Shown: positions 15,688 through 63,245, counted from the first letter of the stretch. The stretch is DNA of 64,000 nucleotides from an uncultured Chloroflexia bacterium (GCA_963718085.1 CAVQYA010000002.1:736127-800126), one strand, 5' to 3'. Made by a program: numbers and translations. The notes: generated from the sequence alone by a model not told the origin.

Positions 15688-16548
15688 GCCGGCGGGCCTC
15701 CACCTCGTCTGGGGCGGCGGCCCTGAAGCGTCCCCGGAAGCCGCCCGACCCAGCCCGAACGTGGGCGCGCGCCCTCGACCGCCGCCGCCCCGGTCTCGTT
15801 CCCTTCGTGCTGGCGGAGCTGGCCACCCTCTACGGCACCCCCCGCCGCGACACGCGCCTGGACCCGGTCTCGGAGCTCGTCCTCACGATCCTCTCCCAGA
15901 ACACGGCCGACGTGAACTCCGAGCGGGCCTTCGAGGCGCTCCGCGCCGCCTACCCGGCCGACGGGCCGGTCACGGTCCACCGCGTGGTCGGCCCCGACGG
16001 CACCGAGGCGCCGCCCGAAGGCTGGGGCGGTCGCGGGCTCGCCGCCGGGTCCGCACCGGACTGGGCCGCGGTCGAGCACGCCCCGCTCGAGGAGCTCATG
16101 GAGGTGATCCGGCCCGGCGGGCTCGCCCTCCAGAAGGCGCCGCGCATCCAGGCCGCCCTGCGCCACGTTCGCGAGGCGTCCGGCGGCTACGACCTCGGCT
16201 TCCTCGCGGCGATGGAGCCGCGGGCAGCCCGCGACTGGCTCACCCGGGTCCCCGGGATCGGCAGGAAGACGGCGTCGATCGTGCTGCTCTTCTGCTTCGG
16301 GCAGCCGCTCATGCCGGTGGACACCCACGTCGAGCGGGTGAGCCGCCGGATCGGCCTCGTGCCGCCGAAGGCCGGGCCCGACGAGCAGCACGAGGTCTAC
16401 TGGCACCTGCTCGCGCCGGAGGACGTCCACGCCGGCCCACGTGCTGCTCATCCAGCACGGGCGCCGGACCTGCGACGCGCGCCGTCCCGCCTGCGACCGC
16501 TGCCCGCTCGCTCCCCGCTGCCGCTACCTCGACCCGAAGGCGCCATAG
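15684..16548 (+). CDS. nth: Endonuclease III family (HhH-GPD, Nth). The reading frame is broken by one frameshift near 16437.
   Basis: The HhH-GPD core is present ([45 protein letters not shown]). The C-terminal Fe-S motif [22 protein letters not shown] appears only in another frame, ending at TAG 16546-16548. Confidence 0.65.
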
Positions 16549-16615
16549 GCGCTGCGGAGGCCGAACCGGGCGGAGCGGCGGCCGAGCGGATACCGGCACG
16601 CGGTATGCTCGCCCC

Positions 16616-17338
16616 ATGATGATCGGCGGCGGGCCGGCGGGGCAGGAGCGCCCGGCCCGGCTCCTCCTGGTCGACGACGACGCGAAGCTGCTCGTCGTGC
16701 TGGCCGAGCAGCTGCGGGCCGACGGCTACGACGTGGCGACCGCCCGCGACGGCATCGAGGCGCTGCGCCGGCTGGCGTCGGGCTGGCCCGACCTCGCCAT
16801 CGTGGACATGATGATGCCGCGCCTCGACGGCCTCTCCCTGGCCCGCGAGATCAAGGCCCGCGCCGACATCCCGATCATCGTGCTCTCGGCCATCGACGCC
16901 GCCGACTCGAAGGCCGAGCTCCTCGACGAGGTCGCCGAGGACTACGTCACGAAGCCTTACCACTACCCGGAGCTGCGGGCCCGGGTGAACCGCGTCCTTC
17001 GCCGCCTCGGGGACCGGCTGCCGGGCCAGCGCGTGGTGCTCGGTCCGGCGCTGGCCCTCGAGCTCCATCGCCGTTCGGCAACCGTCAACGGGGTGGAGGT
17101 CGCCCTGACTCCGATCGAGTCGCGGCTTCTCTACGCGCTCGCCGCTAACCTCGGCAAGACGGTCTCGACCGAGACTCTCCTGCTGCGCGGCTGGGCCGAC
17201 ACGGAGAACGCCGATCCCTCCTACGTCTGGGTCTCGATGCGCCGCCTGCGGACGAAGCTGGAAGCCGACCCGAACCGGCCCCGCCACCTCGTCACCGTCC
17301 GTGGCATCGGCTATCGCCTGGAGGTCGTGACGGCGTGA
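16616..17338 (+). CDS. OmpR-family response regulator.
   Basis: Receiver domain (LLVDDD, D54-like in IVDMMMP, K in YVTKP) plus a winged-helix C-terminus (RLRTKLE). Confidence 0.85.
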
Positions 17339-18726
17339 GCGGCAGCGGCCTCCGCGCGCGGATCACGATCGCGGTCATGGTCGCCGCCGTCCTGCCGGTC
17401 CTCGCGTTCGGCCTCCTCGTCGTCGTCGCCGGGAACCCCGACGCCCTCACTCTGGTCCTGATCGCCCTCGTGGTCGCCGCCTTCGTGGGCCTCGCCGTGG
17501 GCGGCCTCCTCGTCGGCGCCGTCGTGCGGCCCCTGCGGACGCTCGAGACGCGGCTCGACCGGATCACCGCCGGCGAGCGCGTGGAGCCTCTTCCGCCACT
17601 TCCCGACGACGAGCTCGGCCGGCTCGCCGAGCGCCAGGAGGAGCTCGCCGCCGACGTCGCGCGGCGCAATCGGCAGGTGGCCCGCGCGGTCGACGCGATC
17701 ACGGCCTGGGCGCCCGCCGACGGGGCCGCGGCCCTGCTGGCGCGTGCCGCAGCCGATGCCCGCGAGGCCCTGGGCCTGATCGACGCCCGGATCGACCTCG
17801 GCGACCCCGACAGCATCGCCATCGAGGAGCGCGTCCCCGGCGAACCCCACCCCGTCCGTGCCGACCTGCGCGCCGGCCGAGAGGTCGCCGGCGTCCTCGC
17901 CGGCCACGCGTCTGCCACCGCCCGCTGGAAGCCCGCCGACCAGGACCTCCTTGAGCTCTTCGCCGCGAGCGTCGCCGTCACCCTTCGCGACGCCGAGCTC
18001 CTGGCCCGCGTGGAGGAGCAGAACGCGCGACTGGTGGCCCTCGACGCGGAGAAGGACGACTTCCTGCGCGGCATATCGCACAACCTGCAGACACCCCTTG
18101 CCCGGATCCGCGCCTACGCCGACCAGCTGACCGCCGACCACGCGGAGGCCGGCACCGTCGACCGGCGGCCGGGCGTGATCGCCGAGCAGAGCGAGCGGCT
18201 CTCGCGAATGGTTCGCCAGCTCCTCACGGTCAGCCGCCTCGACGCCGGCGTGATCCGACCGGTGGCGGAGGTTTTCGCCCTGGGTCCGCGCGTCAGACGG
18301 GCGTGGGAGGCGCTCGGGGCGGCGGCGGTGTCGTTCGAGCTCGTCGACGAGGCCGGCGGATGGCTGACCGTCGCCGACCCCGACCAGGTGGACCAGGTCC
18401 TGTGGGCCCTGCTCGACAACGCCGTGAAGTACGGGGCCGGCGCCGGGGTTCGCGTCCGGGTGGCGGTGGACGATGCCGCGGGGCGGGTTGCGGTCACCGT
18501 GGCCGACGGGGGCCCGGGGGTCTCGGAGGCCGACAGGGAGGGCCTGTTCGCCCGCTATTCGCGAGGGGGTCGCTCGGAGGATCGTGACGGGACCGGCCTG
18601 GGGCTCTACGTGGGCCGAGCCCTCGCCCGGGCGAACGCCGGGGACCTCGTGCTGGAGCCGTCCACGCCCGGTTCGGGCGCGACCTTCACGCTCGTGCTGC
18701 CGGCGGAGGCTCCCACCGAGGGCTGA
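17335..18726 (+). CDS. Sensor histidine kinase (TM, HAMP, HisKA, HATPase).
   Basis: H-box GISHNLQTPLARIRAY, N-box LLDNAVKYG, G-boxes DGGPGV and GTGLGL. The GTG overlaps the regulator stop (GTGA). Confidence 0.85.
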   Translation: MSGSGLRARITIAVMVAAVLPVLAFGLLVVVAGNPDALTLVLIALVVAAFVGLAVGGLLVGAVVRPLRTLETRLDRITAGERVEPLPPLPDDELGRLAERQEELAADVARRNRQVARAVDAITAWAPADGAAALLARAAADAREALGLIDARIDLGDPDSIAIEERVPGEPHPVRADLRAGREVAGVLAGHASATARWKPADQDLLELFAASVAVTLRDAELLARVEEQNARLVALDAEKDDFLRGISHNLQTPLARIRAYADQLTADHAEAGTVDRRPGVIAEQSERLSRMVRQLLTVSRLDAGVIRPVAEVFALGPRVRRAWEALGAAAVSFELVDEAGGWLTVADPDQVDQVLWALLDNAVKYGAGAGVRVRVAVDDAAGRVAVTVADGGPGVSEADREGLFARYSRGGRSEDRDGTGLGLYVGRALARANAGDLVLEPSTPGSGATFTLVLPAEAPTEG

Positions 18727-19258
18727 CGGCCTCGCCGGCGGGTCCGGCGCTTCCCGGCGTGTCCGGCGCCGGCGGGGCCGGCGGGTCGGGCGCCATCCAG
18801 CACTGCCGCCGGCGTCCGGCCTGCCCGGAGGCCTCGCCGGCGATGGCCGTTGACGCTCCGCACCTCTCCCGGCGAATGCAAGGTTGGCCGCAAAGTGAGG
18901 CGGCAACCATGATCGAGCCGCCGGATCTCGCCGGTGGCGGGAAGCCGCAGCCACGGAGGGCTGCGCAGCCGCGGGGCGATCCCGGCTGGATCCATCACGC
19001 GAGCCCTCGCAGGGGCGTTCGGTCTCCCCGTGGCCCCTGTTGGACTCTCCCGGCGGCAGCGCCGGGCAGCGACGAGGCGGGCACGTCGCGGGGACCCGGT
19101 CTCGGGGACCGGTCTTCGCGGAGTGCCCGCCTCGCTCCTGTCGGGGAGAGGCCGGCCGGCGCAGCGGCCGGTGTCGAGTCCGGGAGTACCCTGACGGTGG
19201 CCGCGACGGCGATCGCCCTGCCGATCCGCTCGCCGCGAACCGCCTGGAGGCCTGGCCC

Positions 19259-19735: not shown

Positions 19736-19876
19736 GGTGCGACCGCCGGGAGGCGGCGGGGCAGCGACCGAATGCGGCCGCGGCGGCGACCGAATGCGGC
19801 GGGGCGGCGACCGAATGCTGCGGCGGGGCACGGCGGACGGAACGCGCGACGCCGCACGCCCGGTGACCGGGCCGCC

Positions 19877-22191: not shown

Positions 22192-22498
22192 GCGGCGGTG
22201 GGCCCTCGTGCGGTCTTGCGGTCGCGCCACTGTACCGCCGGGGGCGGGGGCGTGTCAGGGAGTGTTGGCCCCCGGTTCGGGGGAGAACGGACCTGCCCGA
22301 CCCGTGACCGGCGGCCCGGGGCCCGTCGCCTCGGCTGGCGGCTGCGGCGCCGGGCGGCTTCCGCGGAACCGCCGAACGCCCTCCGTCGGGGCGCGATCCG
22401 GGGTCGCGATTGCGGCGTCGGCGGCGTACCCTATGCGCGCCGCCGCCCGACGGAGGCGAACGGGGTAGGGCGCCTGCAGGGACGAGAGGGAGTGGGGA

Positions 22499-23425
22499 AT
22501 GACCGACCTGCCCGCCGGGGAGCCAACCGGCCCGTCGGCCTCGCCGCCCGAGCCACCACCGCCCGTGGCGCCGCAGCCCGATATTCCCGCTCCGGTGCCC
22601 TCGGCCGCTTATGCCATGCCGCCGGTCGCCGCACCGGCCCCGCCGGTCGCCGTCGCTATGTCGGCGCCCCCGCCCGCAGCTCCCTACGCGCCCCCGCCGC
22701 CCGCGGCCGCATACGTCGCGCCCCCGCCCGTGGCCGCCTACGCGCCCCCGCCCATGACCGCCGCGATCGTGACCCGCGCCGGCTCCTGGTTCGCCGGGCT
22801 CGATCCCCGCGGGTGGCGGACCACGATCGCCGTGGGAATCCTGCTGATCGGCACGGTCCTCGGCGCGAACCTCGTGAACGCCGTCGTTCCGCTGCCGTCG
22901 CGGACGGAGGCCGTCAACCCCGGACCGGGCGTGCCCGCCCAGCCGAATCCGAACCCCGGCCAGCCGACGGCGGCCCCGGTCCAGCCTCAGCCGGTGGCGC
23001 CCGGCACGGGCCTCGCCGTCGGATCCGGCGTCACCGTCTACCCACCGGACGGCTGGTCGGTCGTCGGGTCGCAATCCGGCCAGGTCGTGCTCCAGAAGGG
23101 CGCGGGGGTCATCGTGGTCCTCGCGATGTCGTGGGCCAAGTCGCCCAACGATCTCGTCGTCGCCTACCGTGACGCCTTCTTCAAGAATGGCCAGTTCACC
23201 GCCAACGAACCGCAGTCGCTCCAGATCGGCAACGGCATTCCGGCTGCCGGCTTCCAGTACACGGGCGTCTTCGAAGGCTCGCAGGTCGACGGGGCGATCG
23301 TCGCCGGCGCCGCCGGAGGATCGGGCGTCGCCGTGAACGTCATCGCACCGTCGGGCGGGCTCCAGAGCGTGTCCGACGATGCCGACAAGCTCCTCCGCAC
23401 CGTCCAGATCAAGGGAGGCGGCTAG
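22499..23425 (+). CDS. Pro/Ala-rich membrane-anchored protein (hypothetical).
   Basis: SD gggag before the ATG. The N-terminus is a proline-rich repeat (AAPYAPPPPAAAYVAPPPVAAYAPPP), followed by a single TM helix and an extracytoplasmic domain. Confidence 0.55.
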   Translation: MTDLPAGEPTGPSASPPEPPPPVAPQPDIPAPVPSAAYAMPPVAAPAPPVAVAMSAPPPAAPYAPPPPAAAYVAPPPVAAYAPPPMTAAIVTRAGSWFAGLDPRGWRTTIAVGILLIGTVLGANLVNAVVPLPSRTEAVNPGPGVPAQPNPNPGQPTAAPVQPQPVAPGTGLAVGSGVTVYPPDGWSVVGSQSGQVVLQKGAGVIVVLAMSWAKSPNDLVVAYRDAFFKNGQFTANEPQSLQIGNGIPAAGFQYTGVFEGSQVDGAIVAGAAGGSGVAVNVIAPSGGLQSVSDDADKLLRTVQIKGGG

Positions 23426-25038
23426 TGAGCGCCCAGCCCACGACCCTCGGCGAGGGCGTCCCGCCCCGCTGGGGCTACCAGACCTCCTTCTGGCAGCGCC
23501 GCCAGCCCGCGTTCTGGCTCTTCGTCGTCACCCTGGCCGTGACCGGGTTCGTGGCCCTGGGGCAGCAGCTGGAGATGATCAAGGTCGCCCCGACGGCGTG
23601 GTTCATCACCCTGCTCCTCCTGCTTCCGTACGCGATCCCGGTCCTGCTGGTCATCTACCTGATGGACCTCTACGAGCGAGAGCCGCTGAGCATCCTGGTG
23701 GCGGCGCTCCTGTGGGGCGGGATCGCGGCGACCACACTGTCGTTCTACACGAACACCCCGCTCACCGAGCTGATCTTCAAGTTCACCGCCAACCCGACCT
23801 TCACGTCCGAATGGAGCGCGGCGCTCACGGCGCCCTTCGTGGAGGAGGGCTTCAAGGCGCTGGGGCTCATCCTCCTGGTGTCGATCGCCCGCGCCGAGAT
23901 GGACGACGTCCTCGACGGCTTCGTCTGGGGCGCCATGATCGGCCTCGGCTTCCTGCTGGTGGAGGACGTCTTCTACTTCGTCAGGGCGTACGTCGCCACG
24001 GGCGGGTCCTATCGACGGCCTCTTCCAGATCTTCCTCATCCGCATCCTCGGCTGCCGGACCATACAGCCACTTCCTGTACACGGGCCTGATCGGGATGGG
24101 CGTGGCCTTCTACCAGACCCGCCCCGATGTCGCCTGGTCGCGGCGCGTCCAGGTCGCGATCGCCCTGGCCGCCGCCGGGGTCGGTGCGCACTTCTTCTGG
24201 AACTCACCGCTCCTGGGCGAGCTCCTCGGGCGACGGCGGCCCCGTCGGTTGGGCGACGTTCACCATCGTCAAGGGCCTTCCGATGCTCATCGGGCTCCTG
24301 CTCCTGGTCCGCCTCGCCAGGCAGGCGAGAGCACAAGTGGTTCGAAGGCCTGGTTGCCGCGGAGGTCCAGGACGGCACCATCACGGCGGGCGAGCTGCAC
24401 GAGCTCGGCGGGCTCCGCTCCCGGTGGAGCGCGCGTCGCGCGGCCGGGCGGCTCAAGGGGCCGGCGGGAGGGCGGCTCAAGGGCCAGATCCAGCGCCAGC
24501 AGATCAACCTGGCGATGGTCGAGAGCCGGGTCGGGACCGGGGATCACTCGGACGTCAGGCAGCAGCGTGACCTGGTGTGGGGGCTGAAGGCGCAATACGA
24601 CGCGCTGCCGGTCTTCGTCGCGCCGGTCGCGGTCGTGGCGGCCCCGGTGCCCGTGGTCCAGCCGCAGCCCGTGGTCCAGCCGCAGCTCGTCGCCCAGCCG
24701 CAGCCGGCGCAGGTCGCCGCGGTCCCGCAGCCCGTGGTCCAGCCGCAGCCGGCGCAGGTCGCCGCGGCTCGCGCCCGTGGTCGCCGCAGCCGGCGCAGGT
24801 CGCGCCTCCGCCGCCGCCTCCGCCTCCGTCCGCACCCGCCTGGGCTCCGACGCATCGCGTCCCCGACGAGGGAATGGCCGCCTGGGCCGCCCCGGATCCG
24901 TCGCTTCCACCGGCGGTGACGCTGGGCGGCCGGCTCGAGCTGGTCGTGGTCGAGCTGGCCGGCGACTGGGCGCGAGTCGTGGCCGTCAACGGCTGGACGG
25001 GTTGGGTGGACGGCCGCCGGCTGGTCGCCCGGGGGTAG
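23425..25038 (+). pseudogene. PrsW-family intramembrane protease with a PQ-rich linker and a C-terminal SH3b domain. It is interrupted by at least 5 frameshifts.
   Basis: PrsW motifs EEGFKALG, FxxxxxxxxVEDVFYF and HFLYTGL...HFFWNS are split across three frames between about 23990 and 24330. The PVVQPQPAQVAA linker and the SH3b-like GWTGWVDGRRLV lie in further frames. Confidence 0.6.
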
Positions 25039-25189
25039 TCACCGGACGCGCCGGCGCCATCTCGTCGACCACCGGCGCCGGCTCGCTCCGCGTGCCGGCT
25101 TCGGCGATCGTGCCGGCTTCGGCAATCGCGCCGGCGGCGCCGACGGCTTCGGCGATCGCGCCGGCTCCCCGGCGGGCTACGATCTGACC

Positions 25190-27014
25190 GTGGACGCGCC
25201 AGCCCTGATCGAGACGATCCGCCGCTCGGTGATCGGCGACGACGAGGCCGTGGCGGGGCCGTTCGGCGTGCGCCGCGTGACGTACGCGGACTACACGGCG
25301 TCGGGCCGCAGCCTCACCTTCGTCGAGGACTACCTTCGGGACGCCGTCCTCCCGCTCTACGCGAACACGCACAGCGAGTCGTCGGGCACGGGCCTCCAGA
25401 CGACGCGCTTCCGGGCCGAGGCGCGGCGGATCGTGGGCGAGGCCGTCGGCGCCACCGACGAGCACGTCGTCCTCTTCGTCGGCTCCGGGTCGACCGGCGC
25501 CATCGACCGCCTCGTCCACGTCCTGGGGCTGCGCCTGCCGGCCGATCTCGACGCGCGCTACGGCCTCGCCGCGCGGATCCCGGCCGCCGAGCGTCCGGTC
25601 GTCTTCATCGGCCCCTACGAGCACCACAGCAACGAGCTGCCGTGGCGCGAGTCGATCGCCGAGGTGGTCACGATCCCCGAGGACGCCGACGGGCGGATCG
25701 ACCTCGCCCGCCTGGAGGCCGAGCTGGTCCGTCACGCCGGCCGGCCGCTCCTGATCGGCAGCTTCTCGGCCGCCTCGAACGTCACCGGCATCCTCTCCGA
25801 CACCCGGGCGATCTCGGTCCTCCTCCACCGCCACGGCGCGCTCTCGTTCTGGGACTTCGCGGCCGCCGCGCCGTACGTGGCAATCGAGATGGCGCCGCGG
25901 CGGCCCCGGCCGGACGCGACGACGCGGACGGAGCGGCCCGGGCGACCGCGCCGAGGCGGCTCTCGGCGCTCGCGCCGCCGACAACCGCGCCGACCGACCG
26001 CCCCTGCCGCTCCGACGCCGCCCTGGACACGAAGGACGCCATCTTCATCTCGCCCCACAAGTTCATCGGCGGCCCCGGCACGCCCGGCATCCTCGTCGCC
26101 CGCCGCGACCTCTTCCGCAACCGCGTGCCCACCGTGCCCGGGCGGCGGGACCGTGGCCTACGTCAACCCGACGGAGCACGTCTACCTCGACGACGTCGAG
26201 CGCCGCGAGGAGGGCGGGACGCCGGCGATCGTCGAATCGATCCGGGCCGGGCTCGTCTTCGAGCTGAAGGAGGCCGTCGGGGTCGAGGCCATCCGCGCCC
26301 GCGAGGAGGACTTCATCGGCCGGGCAATCGAGCGATGGGGGGCGAACCCGGCCCTCGAGATCCTGGGCAACCCGGCGCTCCCGCGCCTCTCGATCGTCTC
26401 CTTCGTCGTTCGCCACCGCGGCCGCTACCTGCACCACAACTTCGTGGTCGCGCTGCTCAACGACCTCTTCGGCATCCAGTCGCGGGGCGGCTGCTCCTGT
26501 GCGGGGCCCTACGGCCACCGGCTTCTCGGGATCGACCTCGAGCGCTCGCACGAGTTCGAGCGCGAGATCAGCCCGCGGCTGCGAGGGGATCAAGCCCGGC
26601 TGGGTGCGGGTCAACTTCAACTACTTCATCAGCGAGGCGGTCTTCGCGTTCATCCTCGACGCGGTCGACCTGGTGGCCCGCGAGGGCTGGCGACTCCTGC
26701 CGCAGTACCGCTTCGATCCCCCGACCGGGCTCTGGCAGCACCGCGGCGGAGCCGCGGAGCCGCCCCTCTCGCTCCTCGACGTCCGCTACGAGGACGGGGC
26801 CATGCGCTACGCGGCGCACCGCCACCGCGAGCCGGAGTCACGCCTGGCGGACTACCTCGCGGAGGCGCGAGCGCTGCTGGCGGCCCCGCCGCCGACCCCG
26901 GCCGGGGCCGCCGACCCCCTCGACGTCGGCGCCGACTTCGAGCACCTGCGCTGGTTCTGGCTCCCGTCCGAGGCGGCCGAGGAGCTCGCGGCGGAGGGGC
27001 TCGCGACTCCGTAG
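25190..27014 (+). pseudogene. Aminotransferase class V (cysteine desulfurase-like) PLP enzyme with a C-terminal extension. It is interrupted by 3 frameshifts.
   Basis: LYANTHSESSGTG, FVGSGSTGAI and the PLP-lysine region DAIFISPHKFIGGPGTPG are present. The continuation GGTVAYVNP...SRGGCSCAGPYGH...CEGIKPGWVRVNFNYF needs frame changes near 25900-25990, 26150 and 26575. Confidence 0.6.
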
Positions 27015-27181
27015 ACGAGACGACGACAGCGGACGATCCGGAAGGAGGCGATGGATGTACCGGAGCTCGACGTTCGGCCGGCGCGGCGGCCGGATGCTCA
27101 TCGTGGTGGCGCTCTTCGAGCTCGTTCTTGCGGCCGGCTTCTGGCTGATCCTCGGGGGCGTGCCAGGAAGCGGGCCCCGCG

Positions 27182-28057
27182 ATGCTGCTGACGGCCGGGA
27201 TCCTGGGCGGCGTCGGCGTGGTGCTGCTGCTCGCCGGCCTGCTCTGGATGCGCAGCGCCACGAAGAAGGACCGGATCAGCGCCACGGGCGTGGCCGGGAC
27301 CGGCCAGATCATGGGCCTGCGGCAGACCGGGTTGACGATCAACGACCAGCCGCAGGTGGAGCTGGACCTCCTGGTGACCATCCCCGGCCGCTCGCCGTAC
27401 CGGGCGAATGTGAAGGAGATCGTCCCGCTGATCATGCTCAACCGGCTTCAGGGGTCGCTGCCGGTCCGCGTGAACCCCTCGGAGCCGGACACGGTGGTCG
27501 TCCAGTGGGACCAGCCCAACGTGGGGCTCGAGGCGCTCGAAGGGTTCGATCTCGCCGAGATCGCCAGGTCCGGGACGGTTCTCTACGCCGCCGGAGGCGG
27601 GCTGCGCGGCGGGCCGGGCGCGGGCGGGTTCGCCGACCGCGGGCGGGGCGATCCCGGCGCGGGCGGCGGCTCTGGCGCCGGCGTCGACGAGACCCTGGGC
27701 CAGGTCGCGGCGGCGATGGCCGCCGCCGGAGCCGGCGATGCCGCTCCCGTCTACGGCCAGGCGGCGCAGGCCGGCCTCTCGATCGAGCAGCTGCGCGCCT
27801 GGCTCCGCGCGAACGGCCTCGCGGGCACGGCGCGAATCGACCGCCTCATCGACAGCGGCGAGACGGTGGGCGACGACCGCCTCTTCACGATGACCACGAC
27901 CGTGTCGATCCCCGGCCGCGCGCCGTTCGCCACGGAACCCTCGGCGGCCATGGTGCCCCTCGCGAAGGTCGGGCGGATCGCCGTCGGCGTCTCGCTCCCG
28001 GTGCGCGTCGCGCCCGACAACCCGGACCTGCTCATGTTCGAGTGGGACCGCATCTGA
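27182..28057 (+). CDS. Membrane protein with an internally duplicated domain (hypothetical). It may start at 27056 in another frame.
   Basis: TM helix, then two related domains (LVTIPGRSPY...LPVRVNPSEPDTVVVQWD and TVSIPGRAPF...LPVRVAPDNPDLLMFEWD). An upstream TM helix, MYRSSTFGRRGGRMLIVVALF, is in a different frame. Confidence 0.5.
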   Translation: MLLTAGILGGVGVVLLLAGLLWMRSATKKDRISATGVAGTGQIMGLRQTGLTINDQPQVELDLLVTIPGRSPYRANVKEIVPLIMLNRLQGSLPVRVNPSEPDTVVVQWDQPNVGLEALEGFDLAEIARSGTVLYAAGGGLRGGPGAGGFADRGRGDPGAGGGSGAGVDETLGQVAAAMAAAGAGDAAPVYGQAAQAGLSIEQLRAWLRANGLAGTARIDRLIDSGETVGDDRLFTMTTTVSIPGRAPFATEPSAAMVPLAKVGRIAVGVSLPVRVAPDNPDLLMFEWDRI

Positions 28058-31175: not shown

Positions 31176-31250
31176 GCCGACATAGCTCAGCGGTAGAGCA
31201 GCTGTTTCGTAAACAGCAGGTCCTCGGTTCAAATCCGAGTGTCGGCTCCA
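31176..31250 (+). tRNA. tRNA-Thr, anticodon CGT.
   Basis: Cloverleaf read by hand. Acceptor gccgaca/tgtcggc, D-stem gctc/gagc, anticodon stem gctgt/acagc with loop ttCGTaa, T-arm ctcgg-ttcaaat-ccgag, and an encoded CCA. Confidence 0.85.
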
Positions 31251-50160: not shown

Positions 50161-50211
50161 GTCGCCGGCAACCGGCGGCCGCGATGCCGAGAAGAGAGAC
50201 GGAGCAGGAAC

Positions 50212-51763: not shown

Positions 51764-51817
51764 GCCGGCGGGCCCGGGCGCCGAGGGCCCGCCCGCCGAG
51801 GGATTGACGAACCCGGA

Positions 51818-54592: not shown

Positions 54593-55263
54593 GCACTTCG
54601 CCTCCCGGGCGAGCGACCCGAGGATGGCTCCGCTTCGGCGGGGCCATCCTCTTCGTTCTGGCGGTCGCCGCCTGCGGACCGGCAGCGACCGGGTCGGTGG
54701 GGCCGAGTGCGTCCCCGCTCGCGCCCGGACCGGCGAGCGTGCCCCCGGCGCCGAGCGGGGCGGCGGCGCCCGCCACCGCGCTTCTCGGAGCAGCCCTGGA
54801 GTCCCTGCGCACGGCAGCCGCGTTCGAGACGCGGGTGGAGGTTGACGGGACAGTCGTCGTCTCGGCCACAGGCCGTTCCGTCGGCGCCGCCAGCCAACTC
54901 ACCGTGACCACCGCCGACCGGACGGTCGAATACCTGCAGGTTCCCCCGCGGGCGTGGGCTCGCGAGCCGGGCGCGGCGTGGGTGCTCCTCGGGACCGACC
55001 AGGCACCCGCCGCCCCGCTCGACGTCCTCTCCGACCCGCTGACCCTAGCGACGGCCCCCTCGACCGGGGGGCTGGCGTCCTTCGCCGCGACGTACCCCGC
55101 AGCTGCGCTCGGCCTGGAGGGCGACCCCGTCGCCGTCACGATCACCGTCGACGGCTCGGCCGTGACATTCCGCTACGAGTCGACCGCGTCGGGACACCGG
55201 ACGGCGTCGACCACGACGCTGCGTCCCGCGGCCGCCGACCCGATCGTCGCGCCCGCACCCTGA
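54589..55263 (+). CDS. Lipoprotein (hypothetical). The TTG start overlaps the upstream stop.
   Basis: n-region RATRGWLRFGG, h-region AILFVLAVAA, lipobox Cys. The start codon is inferred. Confidence 0.5.
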   Translation: MSTSPPGRATRGWLRFGGAILFVLAVAACGPAATGSVGPSASPLAPGPASVPPAPSGAAAPATALLGAALESLRTAAAFETRVEVDGTVVVSATGRSVGAASQLTVTTADRTVEYLQVPPRAWAREPGAAWVLLGTDQAPAAPLDVLSDPLTLATAPSTGGLASFAATYPAAALGLEGDPVAVTITVDGSAVTFRYESTASGHRTASTTTLRPAAADPIVAPAP

Positions 55264-55504
55264 CCGGCACGGTTCCGCAGCAGGCAGCCGTCCCGGTCGG
55301 AGGCCGCGCAGGAGCGACCAGATGGCGCGCTCGGAGTTGCCGCGGCGTCCCCCGTTCGGCCACACTGCGGATGGGCGTCACGCCGCCGTCCGCGTGATCC
55401 CCTGACCAGGGCAACCATCATAGTCCTGCAATATCGCGTTTCTTGGAGATATACTGCGGCTGCAGCGCCGCCGTGACGATCGGTGGCGGACCGTCCGTCT
55501 CGAG

Positions 55505-57570
55505 GTGGAGCCGCGCGTGATCCCCGCGTCAGATCCCGTCGTCGCCGGCGACCTGGTCGCGTGGCTCTGGGCGGGCGCCGCGGCCTCGTTCGCGGCGGCG
55601 GCGATCGTCGCCCTCTCCCGGCTTTCCGCGCGCCTGGCGCCGATCGTGGCGACCGTCGGCGGGATCCTCGCCACGGCTTTCGGCGGTGCCCTGGTGGTGA
55701 CCGGAACGACGTTCTCCGTGAGCGCCGGCCAGGTTCTCGGGATGGCCCCGATCGACCTGCGATACGACGGGCTGAGCGGCGTCTTCCTCGTGGCCTTCGG
55801 CCTTTCGGTCGACGGCGGCGTCCCTGTCGATCGTCGGCTCGCGGGCGCGGACTCGCCTCGAAGGGTGTGCCTTCCCCCTCTTCCTGGCCAGCATGTGCTG
55901 GTCCTCGGGGCGCCGCCAACGCGTTCGCCTTCCTGCTGGCCTGGGAGCTGATGGCCCTCCTGTCGGCCGCTCCTCGTCGTGGGCCTTCGCCCCAGCCGGG
56001 CGGTCATCTCGGCCGGCTACCTCTACCTCGCGATGACCCACGTGGCGACCGCCGCACTCCTCGTCGCCTTCGCGATCCTGGCAGCCGGCAACGGCGGCGC
56101 GCTCGACTTCGAGGCGTGGCGGACCGGCAGCGGGGCGCTGGCTCCGCGGCCTGCGCGACGTCGTCTTCCTGCTGGTCCTGGTCGGGTTCGGCACCAAGGC
56201 CGGTGCGATGCCCCTGCATGCGTGGCTGCCGCGGGCCCACCCGGTGGCGCCGTCGCACGTCTCGGCGGTCATGTCGGGGGTGATGATCAAGATGGGGATC
56301 TACGGGCTCGTCCGGATCGTCGTCGACGTCCTCGGCGGCGGCCCGGACTGGTGGGGGCTCCTGGTCCTCGGCGATCGGCGCGCTGTCGGCCGTGCTCGGG
56401 CGTCCTCTACGCCCTCATGCAGCACGACCTCAAGCGGCTGCTGGCGTTCCACAGCATCGAGAACATCGGGATCATCCTGCTCGGCCTCGGCAGCGCGCTG
56501 GTCCTCGGGGCCCACGGCGCCACGGAGCTGGCGGCGCTCGCGCTGACCGCCGCGCTCTTCCACTCGGTCAACCACGCCGTCTTCAAGACGCTGCTCTTCC
56601 TGGGCGCGGGGGCGGTCCTGCACGCGACCGGCCTGCGCGACCTCAACCGGCTTGGCGGCCTGGCCCGAGCGCATGCCGCTGACGGCCCTCACCTTCGGAG
56701 TCGGCGCCGCGGCGATCAGCGGCCTGCCCGCCGCTCAACGGCTTCGCCAGCGAGTGGCTCGTCGTTCCAGGGCCTGCTCGGGACGCTCGGCCAGCGACGC
56801 GATCCCGCCGCTCGATCCGCTCGCGGCCGCGCGCGACGATCGGCGCCCTGGCCCTGACGGCGGCCCTTGCCGTCGCCTGCTTCGTGAAGGCGACCGGGGT
56901 CACGTTCCTCGGGCTGCCGCGGAGCGCGGCGGCCGCGGCGGCCCACGAGGCGAGCGCGGCCTGCCCAGGCCGCGATGGCGCTCCTCGCCGGCTGCCTGCC
57001 TGGCCCTCGGGCTCGGCGCCGGCCCCGTGGTGGGCGGCCCTGACGACCGTGTCCCGCGCCGTCCTGCGGGCCGCCAGCGCTCCCGGGCTCCCGATCGCCG
57101 GTCGCGGCGCTGACCTCGGCACCCGGGTCGGGGGACGGCGGCCGACGTTCGCGGCGCTCGCCGTCGGGCTGCTCCTGCTCGGCACGATCGCGGGCCTCGG
57201 GTTCATCGCGTCCCGCTCGCCGGCAGCGAGCCCGCCGGGTCGACACCTGGACGTGCGGCATCGCGCCCGAGCCCGCCTTCCAGTACACGGCGACCGAGCT
57301 TCGCGAAGCCGATCCGGCTCTTCTTCCGCGGCTCCTCCTCCCCGAGCGCGCAGGTCGAGGTCGAGTACCACCCGGGCACGGCCTTCCCCGACCTCGATCC
57401 GGTACCGGAGCGAGATCACGCTCCTCCTCGAGGACCGGGTCTTCCGGCCGGCCCACCGCGCTGAGCCTCCGGGTGGCGCAGTTCGCCCGGCGACTGCAGG
57501 GCGGGGCCATCCAGCTCTACCTGGCCTACATCGTGATCGCCGTCCTCGTGCTCCTCCTGTGGGCCCGATG
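55505..57570 (+). pseudogene. hyfB: HyfB/NuoL-like proton-pumping membrane subunit of a group-4 [NiFe]-hydrogenase. It is fragmented by about 8 or more frameshifts.
   Basis: Conserved blocks, collinear but alternating among all three frames: ANAFAFLLAWELMALLS, AGYLYLAMTHVATAALLVAF, GFGTKAGAMPLHAWLPRAHPVAPSHVSAVMSGVMIKMGIYGLVR, LYALMQHDLKRLLAFHSIENIGIIL, PLNGFASEW, CFVKATGVTF, and the C-terminal AIQLYLAYIVIAVLVLLLW. Confidence 0.65.
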
Positions 57571-58540
57571 AGCGCGGTGGGACGCGGTCAGCGACCATCG
57601 TCCTCGCCGCGGCCTGCAGCTCGCCGTCGTTCCTCGCCTTCGCGCCGCTTCTCGCCGGCACGATCCGGCGGACGAAGGCGCGGCTCCAGGGCCGCCGCGG
57701 ACCGGCCCTCGTCCAGCCGTACCGGGACCTCGCCAAGTGGTGGGGCAAGGCGCCCCTGGAGAGCAGCACGGCGGGGCCGGTCGCGCGGCACGCCCCGGTC
57801 TTCGTGCTCGGAGTCGATCGCTCGTCGCCGCTCTCCTCGTCCCCTTCGCTGCCGGGCGGCCGCCGCTCGTCGGCTGGGGCGACCTGTTCGTCGTCGTCGG
57901 GCTGCTGGCGGCCGCCCGGTTCGCCCTCGCCCTCGCGGCGCTCGACGCCGGCGGCGCGTTCGGCGGGATGGGCAGCAGCCGCGACGTCGCCATCTCCGCG
58001 CTGGCCGAGCCCGGCGCTCGTGCTCGCGCTGGCCGGTGCCGCGCTCGCGGCAGGGTCGAGCGACCTCGGCACGATCAGCGCCGTTCGGCCTCCGCGCGGG
58101 CCTCGGCCTGCTGGGTCCGACCCACCTCCTTGCCGCGGTGGCCTTCGCGATCGTCGTCGTCGCCGAGACCGGCCACCAGCCAGTCGACAACCCCGACACC
58201 CACCTCGAGCTCACGATGATCCACGAGGGCATGCTGCTCGAGGCGTCCGGCCGCTCGCTGGCGCTCCTGGTCTTCGCCTCCGAGCTGAAGCTCGTGCTGC
58301 TCGGCCGCGCTCTTCGTGGCGGTCTTCGCTGCCGTTCGGAGCGGCGACGGAGATCTCCCTCGGCCCGGTCCTCGTCGGGACGGTCGTCGGGCTCGGCAAG
58401 CTCCTGCTCGTGGGGCAGGCCCTGGCGCTCCTCGATGCGTCCGTCGCCAAGATGCGGATCCTCGCCCTGCCCGATCTGCTCGGGCGCGGCGTCGCTCCTC
58501 GCGCTGGTCGGCCTCGGCGGCTCGGATCCTCGTGGCGCCA
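57568..58540 (+). pseudogene. hyfC: HyfC/NuoH-like membrane subunit, multiply frameshifted.
   Basis: Blocks TIRRTKARLQGRRGPALVQPYRDLAKWW, DLFVVVGLLAAARFALALAALDAGGAFGGMGSSR, AVAFAIVVVAETGHQPVDNPDTHLELTMIHEGMLLEASGRSLAL and VAKMRILALPDL lie in three different frames. Confidence 0.6.
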
Positions 58541-59208
58541 TGATCCTCGACCCGCTGGCCGCCGCCCGCCTGCTCGATGCCTGCGCCGCCGGAATCGTGC
58601 TGGTCGGCGTCCTGATCGCCGGCACGCGGTCGATCGGCCGGGCGATCTGGCTCGTGGCCGTCCAGGGCGATCCTTCTCGGCGCCGCCGCCGTGGCGCGTC
58701 GGGCTGGCCACGGGAACCGCCCATCTCGTCGTCGGGGGTCTCCTGACGTTCGCGACCAAGGGGATCGTGGTCCCCCTGATCCTCGGCCGGATCCTCCGCC
58801 AGAGCCCGGTCCGCGTCGAACGCCATCCGTACCTCGGACCGCGCGTCTCGCTCGTCGTCGCGATCGTCATCGTCTTCGCCGCGACGGCGGCGGTCGACGG
58901 CGCCGCGCTCGGCGGTCGACTCGAGGCGCCGAGCGCGCTGCCGGCGGCGGTCGCCGAGGTGCTGACCGGCCTCCTTGTCGCCATGACCCGGCGCAAGGGC
59001 CTCTCGATCGTGGTCGGGCTCCTCGTCTTCGAGAACGGCCTCAGCCCTGACCGCCTTCAGCCTGACCTACGGGATGCCCCTCGTGATCGAGCTCGGGATC
59101 GCCTTCGACCTCCTCGTCGCCGTCGTGGTGATCTGGGTCTACGCCCGGCGGATGCTGACGGTCCTCGGCTCGCTCTCGACCGATCGCCTGCGGAACCTGC
59201 GCGGATGA
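58540..59208 (+). pseudogene. hyfE: HyfE-like membrane subunit, frameshifted.
   Basis: Blocks LVVGGLLTFATKGIVVPLILGRIL, GLLVAMTRRKGLSIVVGLLVFENGLS and LVIELGIAFDLLVAVVVIWVYARRML lie in differing frames. Ends at TGA 59206-59208. Confidence 0.55.
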
Positions 59209-60700
59209 ACGAGCTGCTCGTCGCCGCCATGCTGCTTGCCCCGCTGCTGGGCGGGCCTGGTCGCCTGGCGCCGGCGGGGCCGGGCCGTGGAGCTCGTCGC
59301 CACGGGCTCGAATGAGCGTCGCCGTGCTCTCGGGCTGCGCCCTCGGCGCCCTCGCCCTGGCTGGCGGTCGTCTGCGCGCCTTCGACGGGCTCGTCGTGGT
59401 CGACGCCCTGGGCGCCTGGCTGCTGGTGCTGACCGCGATCGTCGCCGGGCTCGCCATGGCCGCCTCGCCGCGCTACGTGCGTCACGAGCTGGCCGCCGGC
59501 GCGTTCCGGCCGCGCGACGAGGGCCGCTTCTACGCGCTTCTTCCTGTGGTTCGTGACCAGCCTGCTCGCCGTTCCCCTCGCTCGACAACCTGGGCCTGCT
59601 GTGGGTGGCGATCGAGGCCACGACCGTCGTCTCGGCGCTGCTCGTCGGGATCACCCGGACGCCGGACGCGATCGAGGCGGCCTGGAAGTACCTGATCCTC
59701 GGCACGGTCGGGGTCGGCTTCGCCCTGCTCGGGACGCTGCTCGCCTACGCCTCGTCGGTGCGGGTCCTCGGCGAGAGCTCGGACGCCCTCAACTGGACGC
59801 GGCTGATCTCGATCGCTCCCCTGCTCGATCCGAGCCTCCTGCGCCTGGCCTTCGTCTTCGCGCTGGCGGGCTACGGCACGAAGATCGGCCTGGTGCCGTT
59901 CCACACGTGGCTTCCGGATGCGCACAGCCAGGCACCGAGCCCGGTCAGCGCGCTGCTGTCCGGTGTCTCGCTCGACCGCCGCCCTCTACGCCCTGGTGCG
60001 CTTCCACCTGGTCGCGGTCGGAGGGCTCGGGCCCGGCCTTCTCGTCGAACCTGCTCGTCGCGTTCGGGCTCCTCAGCCTGGCCGTCGCCCTGCCCTTCAT
60101 GTCGTGCAGGAGGACCTCAAGCGCCTGCTCGCCTACTCGAGCATCGAGCACATGGGCCTCCTCGCGCTCGGGCTGGGCTTCGGCGGGCCGCTCGCGCTCG
60201 CTCGGGGTGAGTCCTCCACGTCGGCCTGCACGCGGTCGCCAAGGCGACGCTCGTTCCTCTCCGCCGGCGAGCTCGTCCAGCAGTACGGCAGCCGCCGGCT
60301 CTCGCGGATCCGCGGAACGCTCGCCCGAGCGCCCGTCGCGGGCGGGGCCGTCGGCGGCGGGATCATCCTGCTCGGCGGCCTGCCTCCCTCGGGGATCTTC
60401 GTGACCGAGTTCGCGATCGTCGTCGGCGGCGTGCTGCAGGGCTATGCGCTCGCCGCCGCCCTCGCCGCCGGCCTGCTCGCGGTGGCGTTCGTCGCCGCTC
60501 GCCTTCCACGGGACCCGCCTCCTCTGGGGGCAGGCCGGACCCGGCGTCGCGGCCGGCGCCGCGGGCCGGGCGACGGCGGTTGCGACTCGCGGTCCCACTC
60601 CTCGCGGTGGCCGTGCTCGGGCTGTGGACGCCCGGCCCGCTGGCAGCCGCCCTCGACGCGGTCCGCGCCGTGCTCGGTACGTCGGGGCGTCCGGTGGCTG
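59207..60700 (+). pseudogene. hyfF: HyfF/NuoN-like antiporter-type membrane subunit, multiply frameshifted.
   Basis: Blocks WVAIEATTVVSALLVGI..AIEAAWKYLILGTVGVGFALLGTLLAY, AGYGTKIGLVPFHTWLPDAHSQAPSPVSALLSGV and VQEDLKRLLAYSSIEHMGLLALGLGFGGPLA lie in alternating frames. The 3-prime boundary is approximate. Confidence 0.6.
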
Positions 60701-62355
60701 AGCGGACGAAGCGCCGACGGGCGGCGGCTGTCGGGGCGACCGCGGGCGGGGCGGCGGCTGTCGGGGCGACGGCGGCGGCGGAGGCCGTCGGCGCTGCCCT
60801 CGCCCGCCACGTCTCGCTCTCGGGCTCGGACGACGAGCTTCTCCTTCCCGTGTCGCGCGACGAGCTCGTGCCCGACCGTCCGGGCGCTCGCCGAGCTCGG
60901 CGCCCGCCACGTCATGCTCGCTCGGCCTCGACCTTCGGGGACTCGACCCGGGCGCCGGCACTGGCCGTCGAGGAGGTCCTCTACCTCCCGGGCGGACCCG
61001 CTCGTCCGCGCTGCGGGCCGACCTCGCCAGCGGACGGGCCGTCCTACCCGTCGCTCACGTCGCTCCTGCCGGCTGCGCAGTGGGACGAGCGCGAGGTACG
61101 GGACCTCTTCGGGATCGTGCCGACCGGCCACCCGGATCTGCGGCCGCTCGTCATCCACGAGCCGGCAATGCGGTCCGGCCCACCCGCTCCTGAAGGTCCC
61201 GCCGGCGGTGCCGCCGCCGGCGCGGCGCCCCGTTCCGGCCGTTCGTCGCCCAGGGCGAGGGGGTCTACCAGCTGCCGGTCGGCCCGATCCACGCCGGGAT
61301 CATCGAGCCGGGCCACTTCCGCTTCTCGGCAGTCGGCGAGTCGGTCCTCCACCTCGACGCCCGGCTCTTCTACACGCACCGCGGCCTCGAGCGAGCTCGT
61401 CGAGGGCCGCTCGTTCGACGGCGCGCTGCTCGTGCGTCGAGCGTGCCTGCGGCGTGTGCACGGTCACCCACGCCGACTGCGTTCAGCCGGGCCGTCGAGC
61501 GGCTGACCGGCACCGTCATCCCGCCCCGGGCGCGGCTGGCCCGGATCCTGCTGGCAGAGCTCGAGCGGCTCTACAACCACGTCGGCGATCTCGGCAACAT
61601 CTGCGCCGGCGTCGGGTTCCATTTCGGGACCTCGCAGTCTCGGCTGGCAGAAGGAGCGGCTGCTGCGCCTGAACGAGGCACTGACCGGCCATCGCTACCT
61701 CACCGGGGTCGTGGCGCCGGGCGGGCTTCGCGCTGCGACCTTGACGGCGGGGGCCTCGCGCGAACTGGGCGCCTCGGTGCGAGGAGATCGACCACGACGT
61801 CCGCGCGATCGTCCGCCTCCTCGTCCGGTCCGAGAGCTTCATGCGGACGCCTCCACGGGACCGGCATCGTCGCGCGGCGAGGACGCCCGCCGACTCGGCG
61901 CCGTCGGCGTGGCGGCACGGGCGAGCGGGCTGCCCGTCGACCTTCGCCGCGACCGCCCGTCCGACGGCTACGAGGACCTCGAGGTCCCGTCGATCACCGC
62001 AGGCCGGCCGGTGACGTCGCGGCGCGGTTCCACGTCCGAGCCCAGGAGGCCGTCGGTCTCGCCGGGCTGATCCGCGAGTCTCTCGCCCGCCTTCCCGGCG
62101 GCCCGATCCGCGCCCCGCTGGCGCGCACGTCCGGCGCCCGGCGCGTCCACGGTCGCGGGCGTCGAGGGCCCACGCGGGGCTTCGTGGGCCTGGCTCATGG
62201 CCGGGCCAGACGGCCGCGTCGAGCGCTTGCACCTGCGGTCCGGCTCGTTCGCGAACTGGCCGGTCGTGGCAGCGGCAGCCCCCGGCAACCTCGTCCCGGA
62301 CTTCCCGCTCATCAACAAGAGCTTCGAGCTCTGCTACGCCTGCACGGATCGCTGA
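60700..62355 (+). pseudogene. hyfG: Group-4 [NiFe]-hydrogenase large subunit (HycE/HyfG-like, NuoC-NuoD fusion), multiply frameshifted.
   Basis: Blocks LPAAQWDEREVRDLFGIVPTGHPDLRPLVIHE, VGPIHAGIIEPGHFRFSAVGESVLHLDARLFYTHRGLE, the N-terminal Ni-site RACGVCTVTHA, ARLARILLAELERLYNHVGDLGNICAGVGF and the C-terminal Ni-site SFELCYACTDR are all present but distributed over three frames. The 5-prime boundary is approximate. Confidence 0.65.
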
Positions 62356-62358
62356 CCG

Positions 62359-62700
62359 ATGCCCCTCGACGTCGCTCCGCCGCCTGCTCCTGCCGCTCCG
62401 CGAACCGGTCGTCACGTCGCGCTACCCGGACGCGCCGCCCCTGCTCGCAGCCGGCGGTGCGCGGCCTTCCGGAGGTCGATCCCGGGCCGGTGCGAGCGGA
62501 CGGCCGCCTGCGTCGCCGCCTGCCCGACCGGTGCGATCACGCTGGCGGCAGACCGGCTGGTCGATCGACGCGGGAAGCTGCGTCTTCTGCGGCGCCTGCG
62601 CGCTGGCCTGTCCGAGCGGCGGCGATCCGGCTCGGGCTCGCGCGTCGAGCTGGCCGGCGCGCGATCGCTGACGACCTGGTCGCTCCGCACCGGCCGTCGA
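62359..62700 (+). pseudogene. hyfH: HycF/HyfH-like 2x[4Fe-4S] ferredoxin subunit, frameshifted.
   Basis: Two cluster motifs lie in different frames: CERTAACVAACPTGAITL and GSCVFCGACALACPSG. The 3-prime boundary is approximate. Confidence 0.55.
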
Positions 62701-63245
62701 GCGCGGCCGGACGATGAGCCTGGACCGGGTCGCGCGGCTCGAGCCGGCGCGCCGGCTCGAGCGACGACCGCCGCCGCGCGTGCTCGGGATCGCTCGGCGC
62801 GGCAGCTCGGGCGATCGCTCCACGTCCGCCACCTCGACACGGGCTCCTGCAACGGCTGCGACTGGGAGATCGCGGCGCTGCTCAACTCCGTACCACGACG
62901 TCCAGCGCCTGGGGATCGACTTCGTCGCCTCGCCGCGCCACGCCGACCTGCTCCTGGTGACCGGGATCATGACCCGCAACCTGGAGGAGGCCGCTCGACG
63001 GACCTACGAGGCGATGCCGGAGCCCCGGCTGGTGGTGGCCGTCGGCGCCTGCGCGATCAGCGGCGGTGTGTTCGCCGGATCCGTACGCGGGGCGGGACGG
63101 CGTCGGCGACGTCCTTCCCGTGGACGTCTTCGTGCCCGGCTGTCCGCCGCGGCCCGAGGCGATCATCGAGGGGATGCTCCTGGCGGTCGACCAGCGCGGG
63201 CAGAGCCGTCCGCGGACCCGGCAGGGTGAGAACGCCGCGCGCTGA
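62700..63245 (+). pseudogene. hyfI: HycG/HyfI-like (NuoB-like) hydrogenase small subunit, frameshifted.
   Basis: Blocks [79 protein letters not shown] and [20 protein letters not shown] lie in three successive frames. Ends at TGA 63243-63245. The 5-prime boundary is approximate. Confidence 0.6.

Follow-up and report, generated by a model that had tools for sequence, protein, structure and literature searches.

Spurious frameshifts and pseudogenes are a familiar problem of long-read assemblies, which the IDEEL test, proovframe and short-read polishing address, and the proovframe preprint (10.1101/2021.08.23.457338) is said to treat frameshift errors in Nanopore consensus sequences. In reductive decay, as in Mycobacterium leprae, Shigella and recent symbionts, disrupted genes lie beside intact ones; Mira, Ochman and Moran in 2001 and Kuo and Ochman in 2009 reportedly found that bacterial pseudogenes are biased towards deletions and that their indels have broad sizes. 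Frameshift errors in Nanopore consensus sequences have been described, the residual ones usually as homopolymer indels (PMC9262707). The Microflora Danica metagenome-assembled genomes (MAGs; the MFD loci, e.g., L058) are Nanopore-only Flye assemblies polished with one round of Medaka, and their residual errors are acknowledged (PMC12313526, PMC9262707). The window, i.e., the whole 64-kb stretch of DNA that was analysed, resembles long-read consensus errors in its ORF-truncating single-base indels, its intact relatives, its lack of a decay signal and the fact that long-read contigs of the lineage are affected. The published errors, however, concern homopolymer length and depend on coverage genome-wide, whereas those of the window are almost only insertions, avoid homopolymers, adjoin wobble positions and lie in two sharp patches. 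Errors from collapsed haplotypes or strain mixtures offer another likeness: their patchiness would track strain divergence, and in the window C/G synonymous wobble alternatives stand side by side.

Frame-shifting events were located with a purpose-written protein-to-DNA aligner that includes frameshift states. It superseded tblastn searches with all stop-to-stop ORFs of the related loci, because these were dominated by spurious ORFs of high-GC DNA. We located 86 events in the window, and they are clustered far above chance (index of dispersion of 7.8 in 1-kb bins; Kolmogorov-Smirnov test against a uniform distribution, P = 1e-47), as an earlier sequence-only reading had claimed for the disrupted genes. 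Most of them (74) lie at 55,802-63,557 (patch C, ~9.5 per kb, nearly all single-base insertions), in a seven-gene group-4 [NiFe]-hydrogenase operon and one adjoining minus-strand gene. Another 10 lie at 24,012-27,163 (patch B, ~3.2 per kb), in three unrelated genes and one intergenic spacer, and two are isolated. The remaining ~52 kb shows no event, as judged from L081 orthologues at 13-31 kb, from three sister contigs for other parts, and from ORF continuity and codon statistics for the rest. Under a uniform rate, each event-free stretch has a probability of 4e-5 to 2e-10. The same reading had described long uninterrupted ORFs between the clusters, and these hold up: the codon-usage frame trace gives single long ORFs, and the stretches between the shifts at 13-31 kb show no event against L081. 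High GC, acting through short-read dropout, was considered as the sole cause of the patches (GC of 0.74-0.755); it is inadequate, because the comparably GC-rich regions at 4-8, 14-20 and 40-42 kb carry no event or one.

The operon (55,505-63,218, plus strand) has the gene order of the E. coli hydrogenase-4 and formate hydrogenlyase-like systems: hyfB, hycD/hyfC, hyfE, hyfF, hycE/hyfG, hycF/hyfH and hycG/hyfI. It shares with the Hyf/Hyc-type group-4 membrane-bound [NiFe]-hydrogenases the NuoC-NuoD fusion of the large subunit and, once frames are corrected, the cysteine motifs; it differs in that hyfA, hyfD and a formate dehydrogenase gene are absent beside it within the window. Pfam families were read from the homologues (PF00374, PF00329, PF00346, PF00361, PF00146, PF01058 and Fer4). 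Every gene of the operon is shifted, as had been proposed for the operon as a whole, with ~73 shifts placed by alignment. The hyfB-like membrane subunit (Proton_antipo_M; 55,505-57,568) has at least 22, seen in alignments to the HyfB of L002 (70.8% identity) and, at the nucleotide level, to L084; its closest protein is P0241 (90%), named hydrogenase-4 component B by JGI. The hycD/hyfC-like, NADHdh-type membrane subunit (57,588-58,540) has at least nine, NADHdh being the Pfam family assigned to its orthologue from the 27.9-kb P0130 contig, whose operon is 81% identical. Protein-to-DNA alignment gives three shifts in the hyfE-like membrane subunit (58,540-59,205), and the hyfF-like one (Proton_antipo_M; 59,205-60,684) has 12, including a true 1-nt deletion at 60,102. 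In the hycE/hyfG-like fused NuoC-NuoD large subunit (60,694-62,352), whose homologues carry PF00374, PF00329 and PF00346, there are ~21 shifts, and the corrected protein contains ERACGVCTVTH and ELCYACTDR. The hycF-like 2x[4Fe-4S] ferredoxin subunit (62,359-62,661; six shifts) has the corrected motifs CERTAACVAACP and CVFCGACALACP, and the hycG-like NuoB-type small subunit (62,755-63,218) has two shifts in the alignment. All Ni-Fe and Fe-S cysteine motifs of the operon are kept after correction, and the features of a group-4 [NiFe]-hydrogenase are all present: N- and C-terminal CxxC Ni-Fe motifs in the large subunit, a NuoB-like small subunit, membrane subunits of the antiporter and NuoH types, and the 2x[4Fe-4S] subunit.

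Patch C does not follow gene boundaries exactly. Its left edge is sharp and lies ~300 nt within hyfB, since the 1.1 kb at 54,723-55,809 aligns to L084 without any clean 1-nt insertion, and event density drops beyond ~63,100. The patch also reaches a small conserved minus-strand gene (63,782 to 63,386), without a match in a Pfam search, which has at least one +1 insertion near 63,557 in alignments to its L004, L027 and L022 orthologues.

Patch B is the sparser one. The gene of the PrsW protease, with its P/Q-rich repeat linker and SH3b-like tail (23,425-25,041, plus strand), has insertions at 24,012 (T), 24,055 (C), 24,227 (C) and 24,323 (A), besides a net +2 shift in the linker (24,650-24,825), in line with the at least five shifts reported before. 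The class-V aminotransferase or cysteine desulfurase-like gene (25,190-27,008, plus strand), whose in-frame identity to the unbroken P0001 is 96%, has a net +2 in a variable loop (25,900-26,012) and insertions at 26,140 (G) and 26,572 (C); these correspond to the three shifts noticed at about 25,950, 26,150 and 26,575. The next gene (27,055-28,054, plus strand), a membrane protein orthologous to a 314-aa gene of L081, had been listed as possibly shifted and indeed has an insertion at 27,163 (C). Alignment to L082 also places an insertion (C) at 27,030, in the spacer that separates the aminotransferase from this gene, an event overlooked earlier. The two isolated shifts were both recovered close to where the sequence-only reading had put them (near 16,437 and 43,717). 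Endonuclease III (nth; 15,684-16,545, plus strand) has a +1 insertion at ~16,434 in a frameshift-aware alignment to the intact L081 orthologue, and its Fe-S loop CX6CX2CX5C continues in the next frame. The multi-pass membrane histidine kinase (42,059-43,860, plus strand) has a +1 shift near 43,722: its C-terminal SAPGRGTRVTVRLP lies in the next frame, and frame correction lengthens the HATPase_c match, which covers profile positions 3-101 before it and 3-110 (of 111) afterwards.

Two origins had been proposed for these events, patchy consensus quality and genuine gene decay, and their type bears on both. At the protein level, 76 of the 86 events are 1-nt insertions; the tally over the whole operon also lists five 2-nt insertions, two 1-nt deletions and one 2-nt deletion, with no in-frame stop. 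In nucleotide alignments with L084, L083 and L082, which are intact and ~94% identical to the window, clean 1-nt insertions outnumber deletions 61:3 (P = 5e-15); besides sites in patch B, those resolved in this way include 55,810, 55,969, 60,029 and 61,010. The events are thus one-directional and uniform in size, as expected of an artefact. Had recent pseudogenisation removed the hydrogenase along with some further functions, the frameshifts being real mutations, the indels should be biased towards deletions and broad in size; we found a 20:1 excess of insertions and a size of 1 nt in all clean events, the opposite of the bacterial pseudogene pattern. Some observations do speak for such a loss, which is biologically plausible for an energy-conserving hydrogenase. 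As in reductive decay, disrupted genes lie beside intact ones and an entire operon is affected, and the extent of patch C is close to that of a single operon (55.5-63.2 kb), which function-specific decay would also produce. This near-coextension also counts against the artefact and tempers the indication that the events follow a region rather than a gene, as given by the spacer insertion at 27,030, the minus-strand event at ~63,557 and the edge inside hyfB.

The selection regime of the corrected genes is at odds with decay. Once the extra bases are removed, the frame-corrected genes have no in-frame stop and dN/dS of 0.12-0.26, i.e., normal purifying selection. Indels make up about one tenth of the spontaneous mutations in mutation-accumulation lines, and the 74 indels of patch C should have brought several hundred neutral substitutions. 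Yet the amino-acid changes unique to the window show no excess over those unique to the sister in any of six proteins, the relative-rate counts being balanced or lower (window:sister, 13:30 in HyfB, 4:9 in HycD, 3:6 in HyfF, 23:25 in HycE, 8:9 in PrsW and 4:14 in the aminotransferase). Signs of relaxed selection in the shifted genes (an elevated dN/dS, in-frame stops or a lengthened branch) were sought and not found. Unlike reductive genomes, the window also shows no large deletions or IS elements.

The orthologues of relatives tell the same story. Every gene shifted in the window is intact in the syntenic contig L081, and the shifted genes are likewise intact in L082, L083 and L084. Of ~75 related loci, essentially all have an intact hydrogenase operon, with 0-3 events each that are alignment noise, including those on short-read contigs. 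The exception is a long-read MAG, L058, with ~22 mostly +1 shifts in the operon. A second MAG with a shifted hydrogenase could be taken as a further sign of loss; a close relative of L058 for typing its errors at the nucleotide level was not found. In another long-read contig, L080, the PrsW and aminotransferase genes are intact and at least 25 shifts lie in an ABC-transporter region (86% nucleotide identity with L081, with noisy compensating gaps). Comparable assemblies thus have patches elsewhere. The check for pseudogenes in sister genomes that the earlier reading had called for therefore leaves decay unsupported, and of its two options patchy consensus quality gains support while decay is contradicted. 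We regard pseudogenisation as very unlikely, and the broken frames of the window as very probably artefactual. Because the frameshifts are almost all single letters apparently added at assembly, it is very probable that the living organism has an intact hydrogenase and intact versions of the other "broken" genes.

The inserted bases themselves suggest how such errors may arise. The shifts had been described as lying in short G/C runs and not in long homopolymers. The second half of this description stands, but most of the events are not run extensions: the inserted base repeats a neighbour in only eight of 61 cases, where random insertion expects 52% (P = 1e-10), and it is unlike both neighbours in the other 53. 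The pattern that the earlier wording misses is a non-repeated extra base adjoining the wobble position of a codon. In 39 of the 58 coding cases, a codon ending in the inserted base and the same codon ending in the adjacent third-position base would be synonymous, against 34% under an unconditional null (P = 3e-7) and 31.3 expected under a null matched for the flanking and inserted bases (P = 0.017). In the first two contigs, 23 of 29 synonymous pairs are C/G, the most frequent third-position difference between the window and the sister contigs, and a CpG is created in 37 of the 61 insertions. Insertions that respect wobble positions are not what frame-blind mutation in a dead gene would give. 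A methylation-type or other fixed motif was also considered; the apparent CTCG-type contexts are accounted for by codon usage, because the CTC and CTG leucine codons are abundant and codons degenerate.

The synonymous pairs suggest a strain polymorphism of which both alleles entered the consensus. We propose, with a probability of roughly 0.55, that the frameshifts are consensus-building errors in which mixed, related populations were collapsed into one sequence. The metagenome contig would then merge at least two closely related populations, and where these differ, the assembler or polisher would sometimes write both alleles of a single-base polymorphism side by side (CTC/CTG giving CTCG). 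Keeping both alleles instead of one would add one base and break the frame. The patches would mark pile-ups of mixed reads, either in segments where strains diverge or in conserved genes that recruit reads of relatives. A mixed read population is slightly favoured as the cause by this pattern in the consensus, and many related Limnocylindria populations do occur together: in sample MFD04716, four different bins carry the hydrogenase operon. A signature of written-out allele pairs is known from partial-order-alignment consensus tools, which we take as a lead only; our literature search found no paper describing exactly this signature.

The errors could also have arisen without any mixing of strains, if the patches derive from few or unpolished long reads (low local coverage, or gaps bridged with raw reads) and the insertions depend on context (CC to CGC, TG to TCG, GG to GCG). 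With a third-position G+C of ~95% in this genome, such contexts would fall at codon junctions by chance. The context-matched excess is modest (P = 0.017), so context-specific insertion error could explain much of the wobble association; indeed the matched simulation already predicts 31.3 of the 58 synonymous pairs. Furthermore, L080 and L058 are long-read contigs of the lineage with local error patches, and consensus quality drops with low coverage (PMC9262707, PMC12313526). On the other hand, the residual excess of synonymous pairs stays, and the strong depletion of homopolymer-type insertions would be unusual for raw long-read error, an oddity that also counts against an artefact of the usual Nanopore kind. 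Insertions and deletions are mixed in the L080 patch, whereas the window has almost only insertions. Identical contexts are also plentiful in the event-free ~52 kb, and some regional variable is therefore required anyway. We hold this origin to be possible, but lean against it.

The extra bases might, finally, be truly present in the DNA, where they would be tolerated or else removed or bypassed in the RNA or on the ribosome, or result from a localised insertion-generating process. A hydrogenase operon of a Chloroflexota bacterium would then be cryptically encoded, with insertions at high density, and what speaks for this is the odd pattern itself (near insertion-only, dense, wobble-adjacent, with coding potential kept between events). 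Neither slippery sequences nor conserved sites, the marks of programmed frameshifting or transcriptional slippage, were found among the 86 sites; their contexts are heterogeneous, and at no aligned site do the orthologues have the extra base. Events also occur in the spacer. A density of ~1 event per 100 nt exceeds by far, to our knowledge, any bacterial recoding, and we know of no editing machinery in bacteria. We consider such an encoding extremely improbable.

If consensus errors are indeed responsible, a mistake is averted. Taken at face value, the window would describe a Limnocylindria-like soil bacterium devoid of an energy-converting hydrogenase, an Fe-S/PLP enzyme, a DNA-repair glycosylase and a sensor kinase, and these losses would skew what is inferred of the metabolism, and how many pseudogenes are counted, in an uncultured lineage. 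The long-read MAGs of this lineage hold local error patches, which genome-wide quality scores may miss. A by-product of the analysis is a read-free diagnostic that could tell real decay in public MAGs apart from artefactual frameshifts, based on four signals: insertion-only events, homopolymer avoidance, wobble-adjacent synonymous extra bases and balanced relative-rate tests.

Near the start of the window, a UDG-like fragment (1,926-2,037) was examined as a frameshifted second copy of a gene; it is a remnant rather than a shifted gene, because only ~35 C-terminal residues align.

Frame-shifting indels in the window are strongly clustered. Viterbi tracing of codon usage in all six frames gave long one-frame segments across most of the window and dense frame switches in 23.4-27.2 kb and 55.5-63.2 kb. 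Exact positions were obtained with a purpose-written protein-to-DNA aligner with explicit frameshift states, using intact orthologues as queries. Aligned to the seven hydrogenase proteins of a related locus (L002), the forward-strand group-4 [NiFe]-hydrogenase operon (55,505-63,218) required about 73 frame corrections, at in-frame identities of 71-84%, and contained no in-frame stops. The closest relatives of the window are Chloroflexota MAGs labelled Limnocylindria/Limnocylindrales. A 162-kb contig of an ENA long-read assembly (L081) is syntenic with its 13-31 kb segment (62-94% amino acid identity, mostly 75-94%). Relative to this contig, nth has one +1 event (16,434), the PrsW gene four, the class-V aminotransferase three and the next membrane protein one; eleven other aligned genes in 14.4-31.1 kb have none. 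There is also a spacer insertion at 27,030, a frame change near 43,722 in the histidine kinase, whose C-terminal SAPGRGTRVTVRLP reads in the +1 frame and whose HATPase_c coverage is complete once corrected, and at least one insertion (near 63,557) in the minus-strand gene directly past the operon.

The events total 86: 74 in 55,802-63,557, 10 in 24,012-27,163 and two singles. The dispersion index in 1-kb bins is 7.8, a Kolmogorov-Smirnov test rejects a uniform distribution (P = 1e-47), and each of four long event-free stretches would have a probability of 4e-5 to 2e-10 given a uniform rate. The clustering proposed in the sequence-only reading is thus confirmed and was, if anything, understated. 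Its individual calls are likewise confirmed: shifts in nth near 16437 and in the histidine kinase near 43717, three in the aminotransferase, a possible one in the membrane protein, disruption throughout the operon, and shift-free regions with long ORFs.

Three short JGI contigs, each with about 94% DNA identity to part of the window (L082, 23,835-27,254; L083, 59,750-62,405; L084, 54,723-58,538), were aligned at the nucleotide level. The window has 61 clean 1-base insertions relative to them versus 3 single-base deletions (P = 5e-15). Multi-base gaps are limited to low-complexity linkers whose length varies among all homologues, and within the coverage of these contigs each 'ins2' call of the protein aligner is two neighbouring single insertions. 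Among the inserted bases, G (26) and C (24) outnumber A (8) and T (3), and 37 of the 61 create a CpG. The shifts had been placed in short G/C runs, not long homopolymers; the avoidance of homopolymers stands, but the inserted base equals a neighbour in just 8/61 cases, versus 52% under random insertion (P = 1e-10), so that few extend a run.

With the sister reading frames as reference, 39 of 58 coding insertions create a pair of adjacent bases that are synonymous alternatives for the third codon position (e.g., CTC[G], GCC[G], CT[C]G, TA[T]C), versus 34% by random insertion (P = 3e-7). A null matched for flanking and inserted base raises the expectation to 31.3 (P = 0.017), so sequence context, given very G+C-rich third positions, can explain much of this association, with a residual excess persisting. 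The G+C content of the window is 73%. In hycE (62056-62086), two compensating pairs (deletion at 62,056 and insertion at 62,059; insertion at 62,078 and deletion at 62,086) locally scramble 1-3 codons and leave the net frame unchanged. Such pairs would go unnoticed by any ORF-based check.

One of two explanations offered earlier was genuine decay of specific functions. To examine this, each gene was set against its sister-contig counterpart after deletion of the extra bases. The resulting dN/dS values indicate purifying selection (HyfF C-terminal part 0.12, HycE 0.26, PrsW 0.17, aminotransferase 0.12), and none of these four sequences has an in-frame stop. If 74 indels had become fixed within 7.7 kb by drift, hundreds of unconstrained substitutions would be expected alongside them. 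No such excess appears in the window in relative-rate tests that take L002 or L081 as the outgroup (window-unique to sister-unique changes: HyfB 13:30, HycD 4:9, HyfF 3:6, HycE 23:25, PrsW 8:9, aminotransferase 4:14). The corrected operon proteins retain all expected metal-binding motifs: ERACGVCTVTH and ELCYACTDR in the large subunit, the cysteine motifs including PGCPP in the small subunit, and two CxxCxxCxxxCP motifs in the ferredoxin subunit. Finally, bacterial pseudogenes are reportedly biased to deletions (Mira et al. 2001; Kuo and Ochman 2009), whereas the window shows the reverse, insertions of 1 nt. Pseudogenisation of the hydrogenase and the other genes is thus contradicted on four independent counts, conflicts with most measurements, and is very unlikely.

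At first sight only one feature speaks for a functional reading: the second patch is nearly coextensive with the operon. Its left edge (55,802-55,810) lies about 300 nt into hyfB; the preceding 1.1 kb, aligned to L084, has no clean single-base insertions, its gaps being limited to the alignment start and one 3-nt in-frame gap. The patch extends to the opposite-strand gene past the operon, with density dropping after about 63.1 kb. The first patch takes in three neighbouring, unrelated genes together with one of the spacers separating them. The overlap of the second patch with the operon can also come about if reads of related populations are recruited to the conserved operon but not to its lineage-specific flanks, or if an operon-sized segment exchanged by recombination distinguishes the strains.

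The same aligner was run on about 75 related hydrogenase loci. Almost every one has 0-3 events, which are alignment noise and often take the form of compensating pairs where the sequences diverge; the shifted operon is not generally a pseudogene in sister genomes. The exception is a Microflora Danica long-read MAG (L058; MFD01872.bin.2.254, CAWFJD010000018.1), with about 22 shifts, mostly +1, spread across the orthologous operon (4332-11412). Another ENA long-read assembly contains a sister contig of L081 (L080; ERZ25039459 contig_135755) that has at least 25 shifts, insertions and deletions mixed, in ABC-transporter genes and a 235-aa hypothetical gene (3370-8200). The window's pattern is inverted here, with intact PrsW, aminotransferase and membrane-protein genes. 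Frameshift patches therefore arise in assemblies of this kind, at sites differing between contigs. Microflora Danica MAGs are Nanopore-only Flye assemblies with one Medaka polish, and the authors acknowledge that those of lower coverage may contain Nanopore-associated errors (PMC12313526). It is well documented that Nanopore consensus sequences contain indels that cause frameshifts (PMC9262707).

With decay contradicted and patches present in comparable long-read contigs, patchy consensus quality, the other earlier explanation, is best supported: we put the probability of an artefact at about 0.9. As to its origin, we lean towards a mixed population collapsed into one consensus, with both alleles entered at polymorphic sites. 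This one process would explain why the events are patchy and biased to insertions only, why they avoid extending homopolymers, why C/G pairs predominate, and why they are associated with wobble positions and synonymous alternatives. The main alternative, possible if less probable, is that the long-read consensus is poor or unpolished in places and that insertions are favoured in certain sequence contexts. Biological recoding or a localised mutational phenomenon is at odds with most measurements and extremely improbable. The pattern is real in the text and highly non-random; the organism itself very probably does not have it. Metagenome consensus sequences are known to suffer from spurious frameshifts, here with a somewhat unusual error signature; the biological interest is low, and the practical value lies in the warning and in a read-free means of recognising such artefacts.

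Other features were observed along the window. The PrsW gene carries a P/Q/V-rich linker of 45/81-nt repeats (24622-24803) and an SH3b-like C-terminal domain (24859-25041) that has no Pfam match; both are absent from the 403-aa orthologue in L081. The small minus-strand gene ends (3') in a near-perfect 54-nt tandem duplication (63305-63413) whose unit contains the stop codon and which could be real or a further consensus artefact. A uracil-DNA-glycosylase-like gene (552-1328) has its C-terminus duplicated as a fragment of about 35 aa (DPSQQNTFTGRLTPAMLDAVLQRAREIA; 1926-2037, forward strand), which looks like a genuine gene remnant because the rest of the second copy is absent. Long tandem repeats occur outside clearly coding segments at 163-422 (123 nt x2.1), 2506-2806 (94 nt x3.2), 3770-3966 (94 nt x2.1) and 6198-6443 (72 nt x3.4, 97% matches). 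A tRNA-Thr(CGT) (31176-31250) marks the exact end of the L081 synteny; the segment beyond it, with two large minus-strand ATPase-like genes and a 909-aa LuxR-type gene (31.3-37.1 kb), may represent the insertion of an island at this tRNA.
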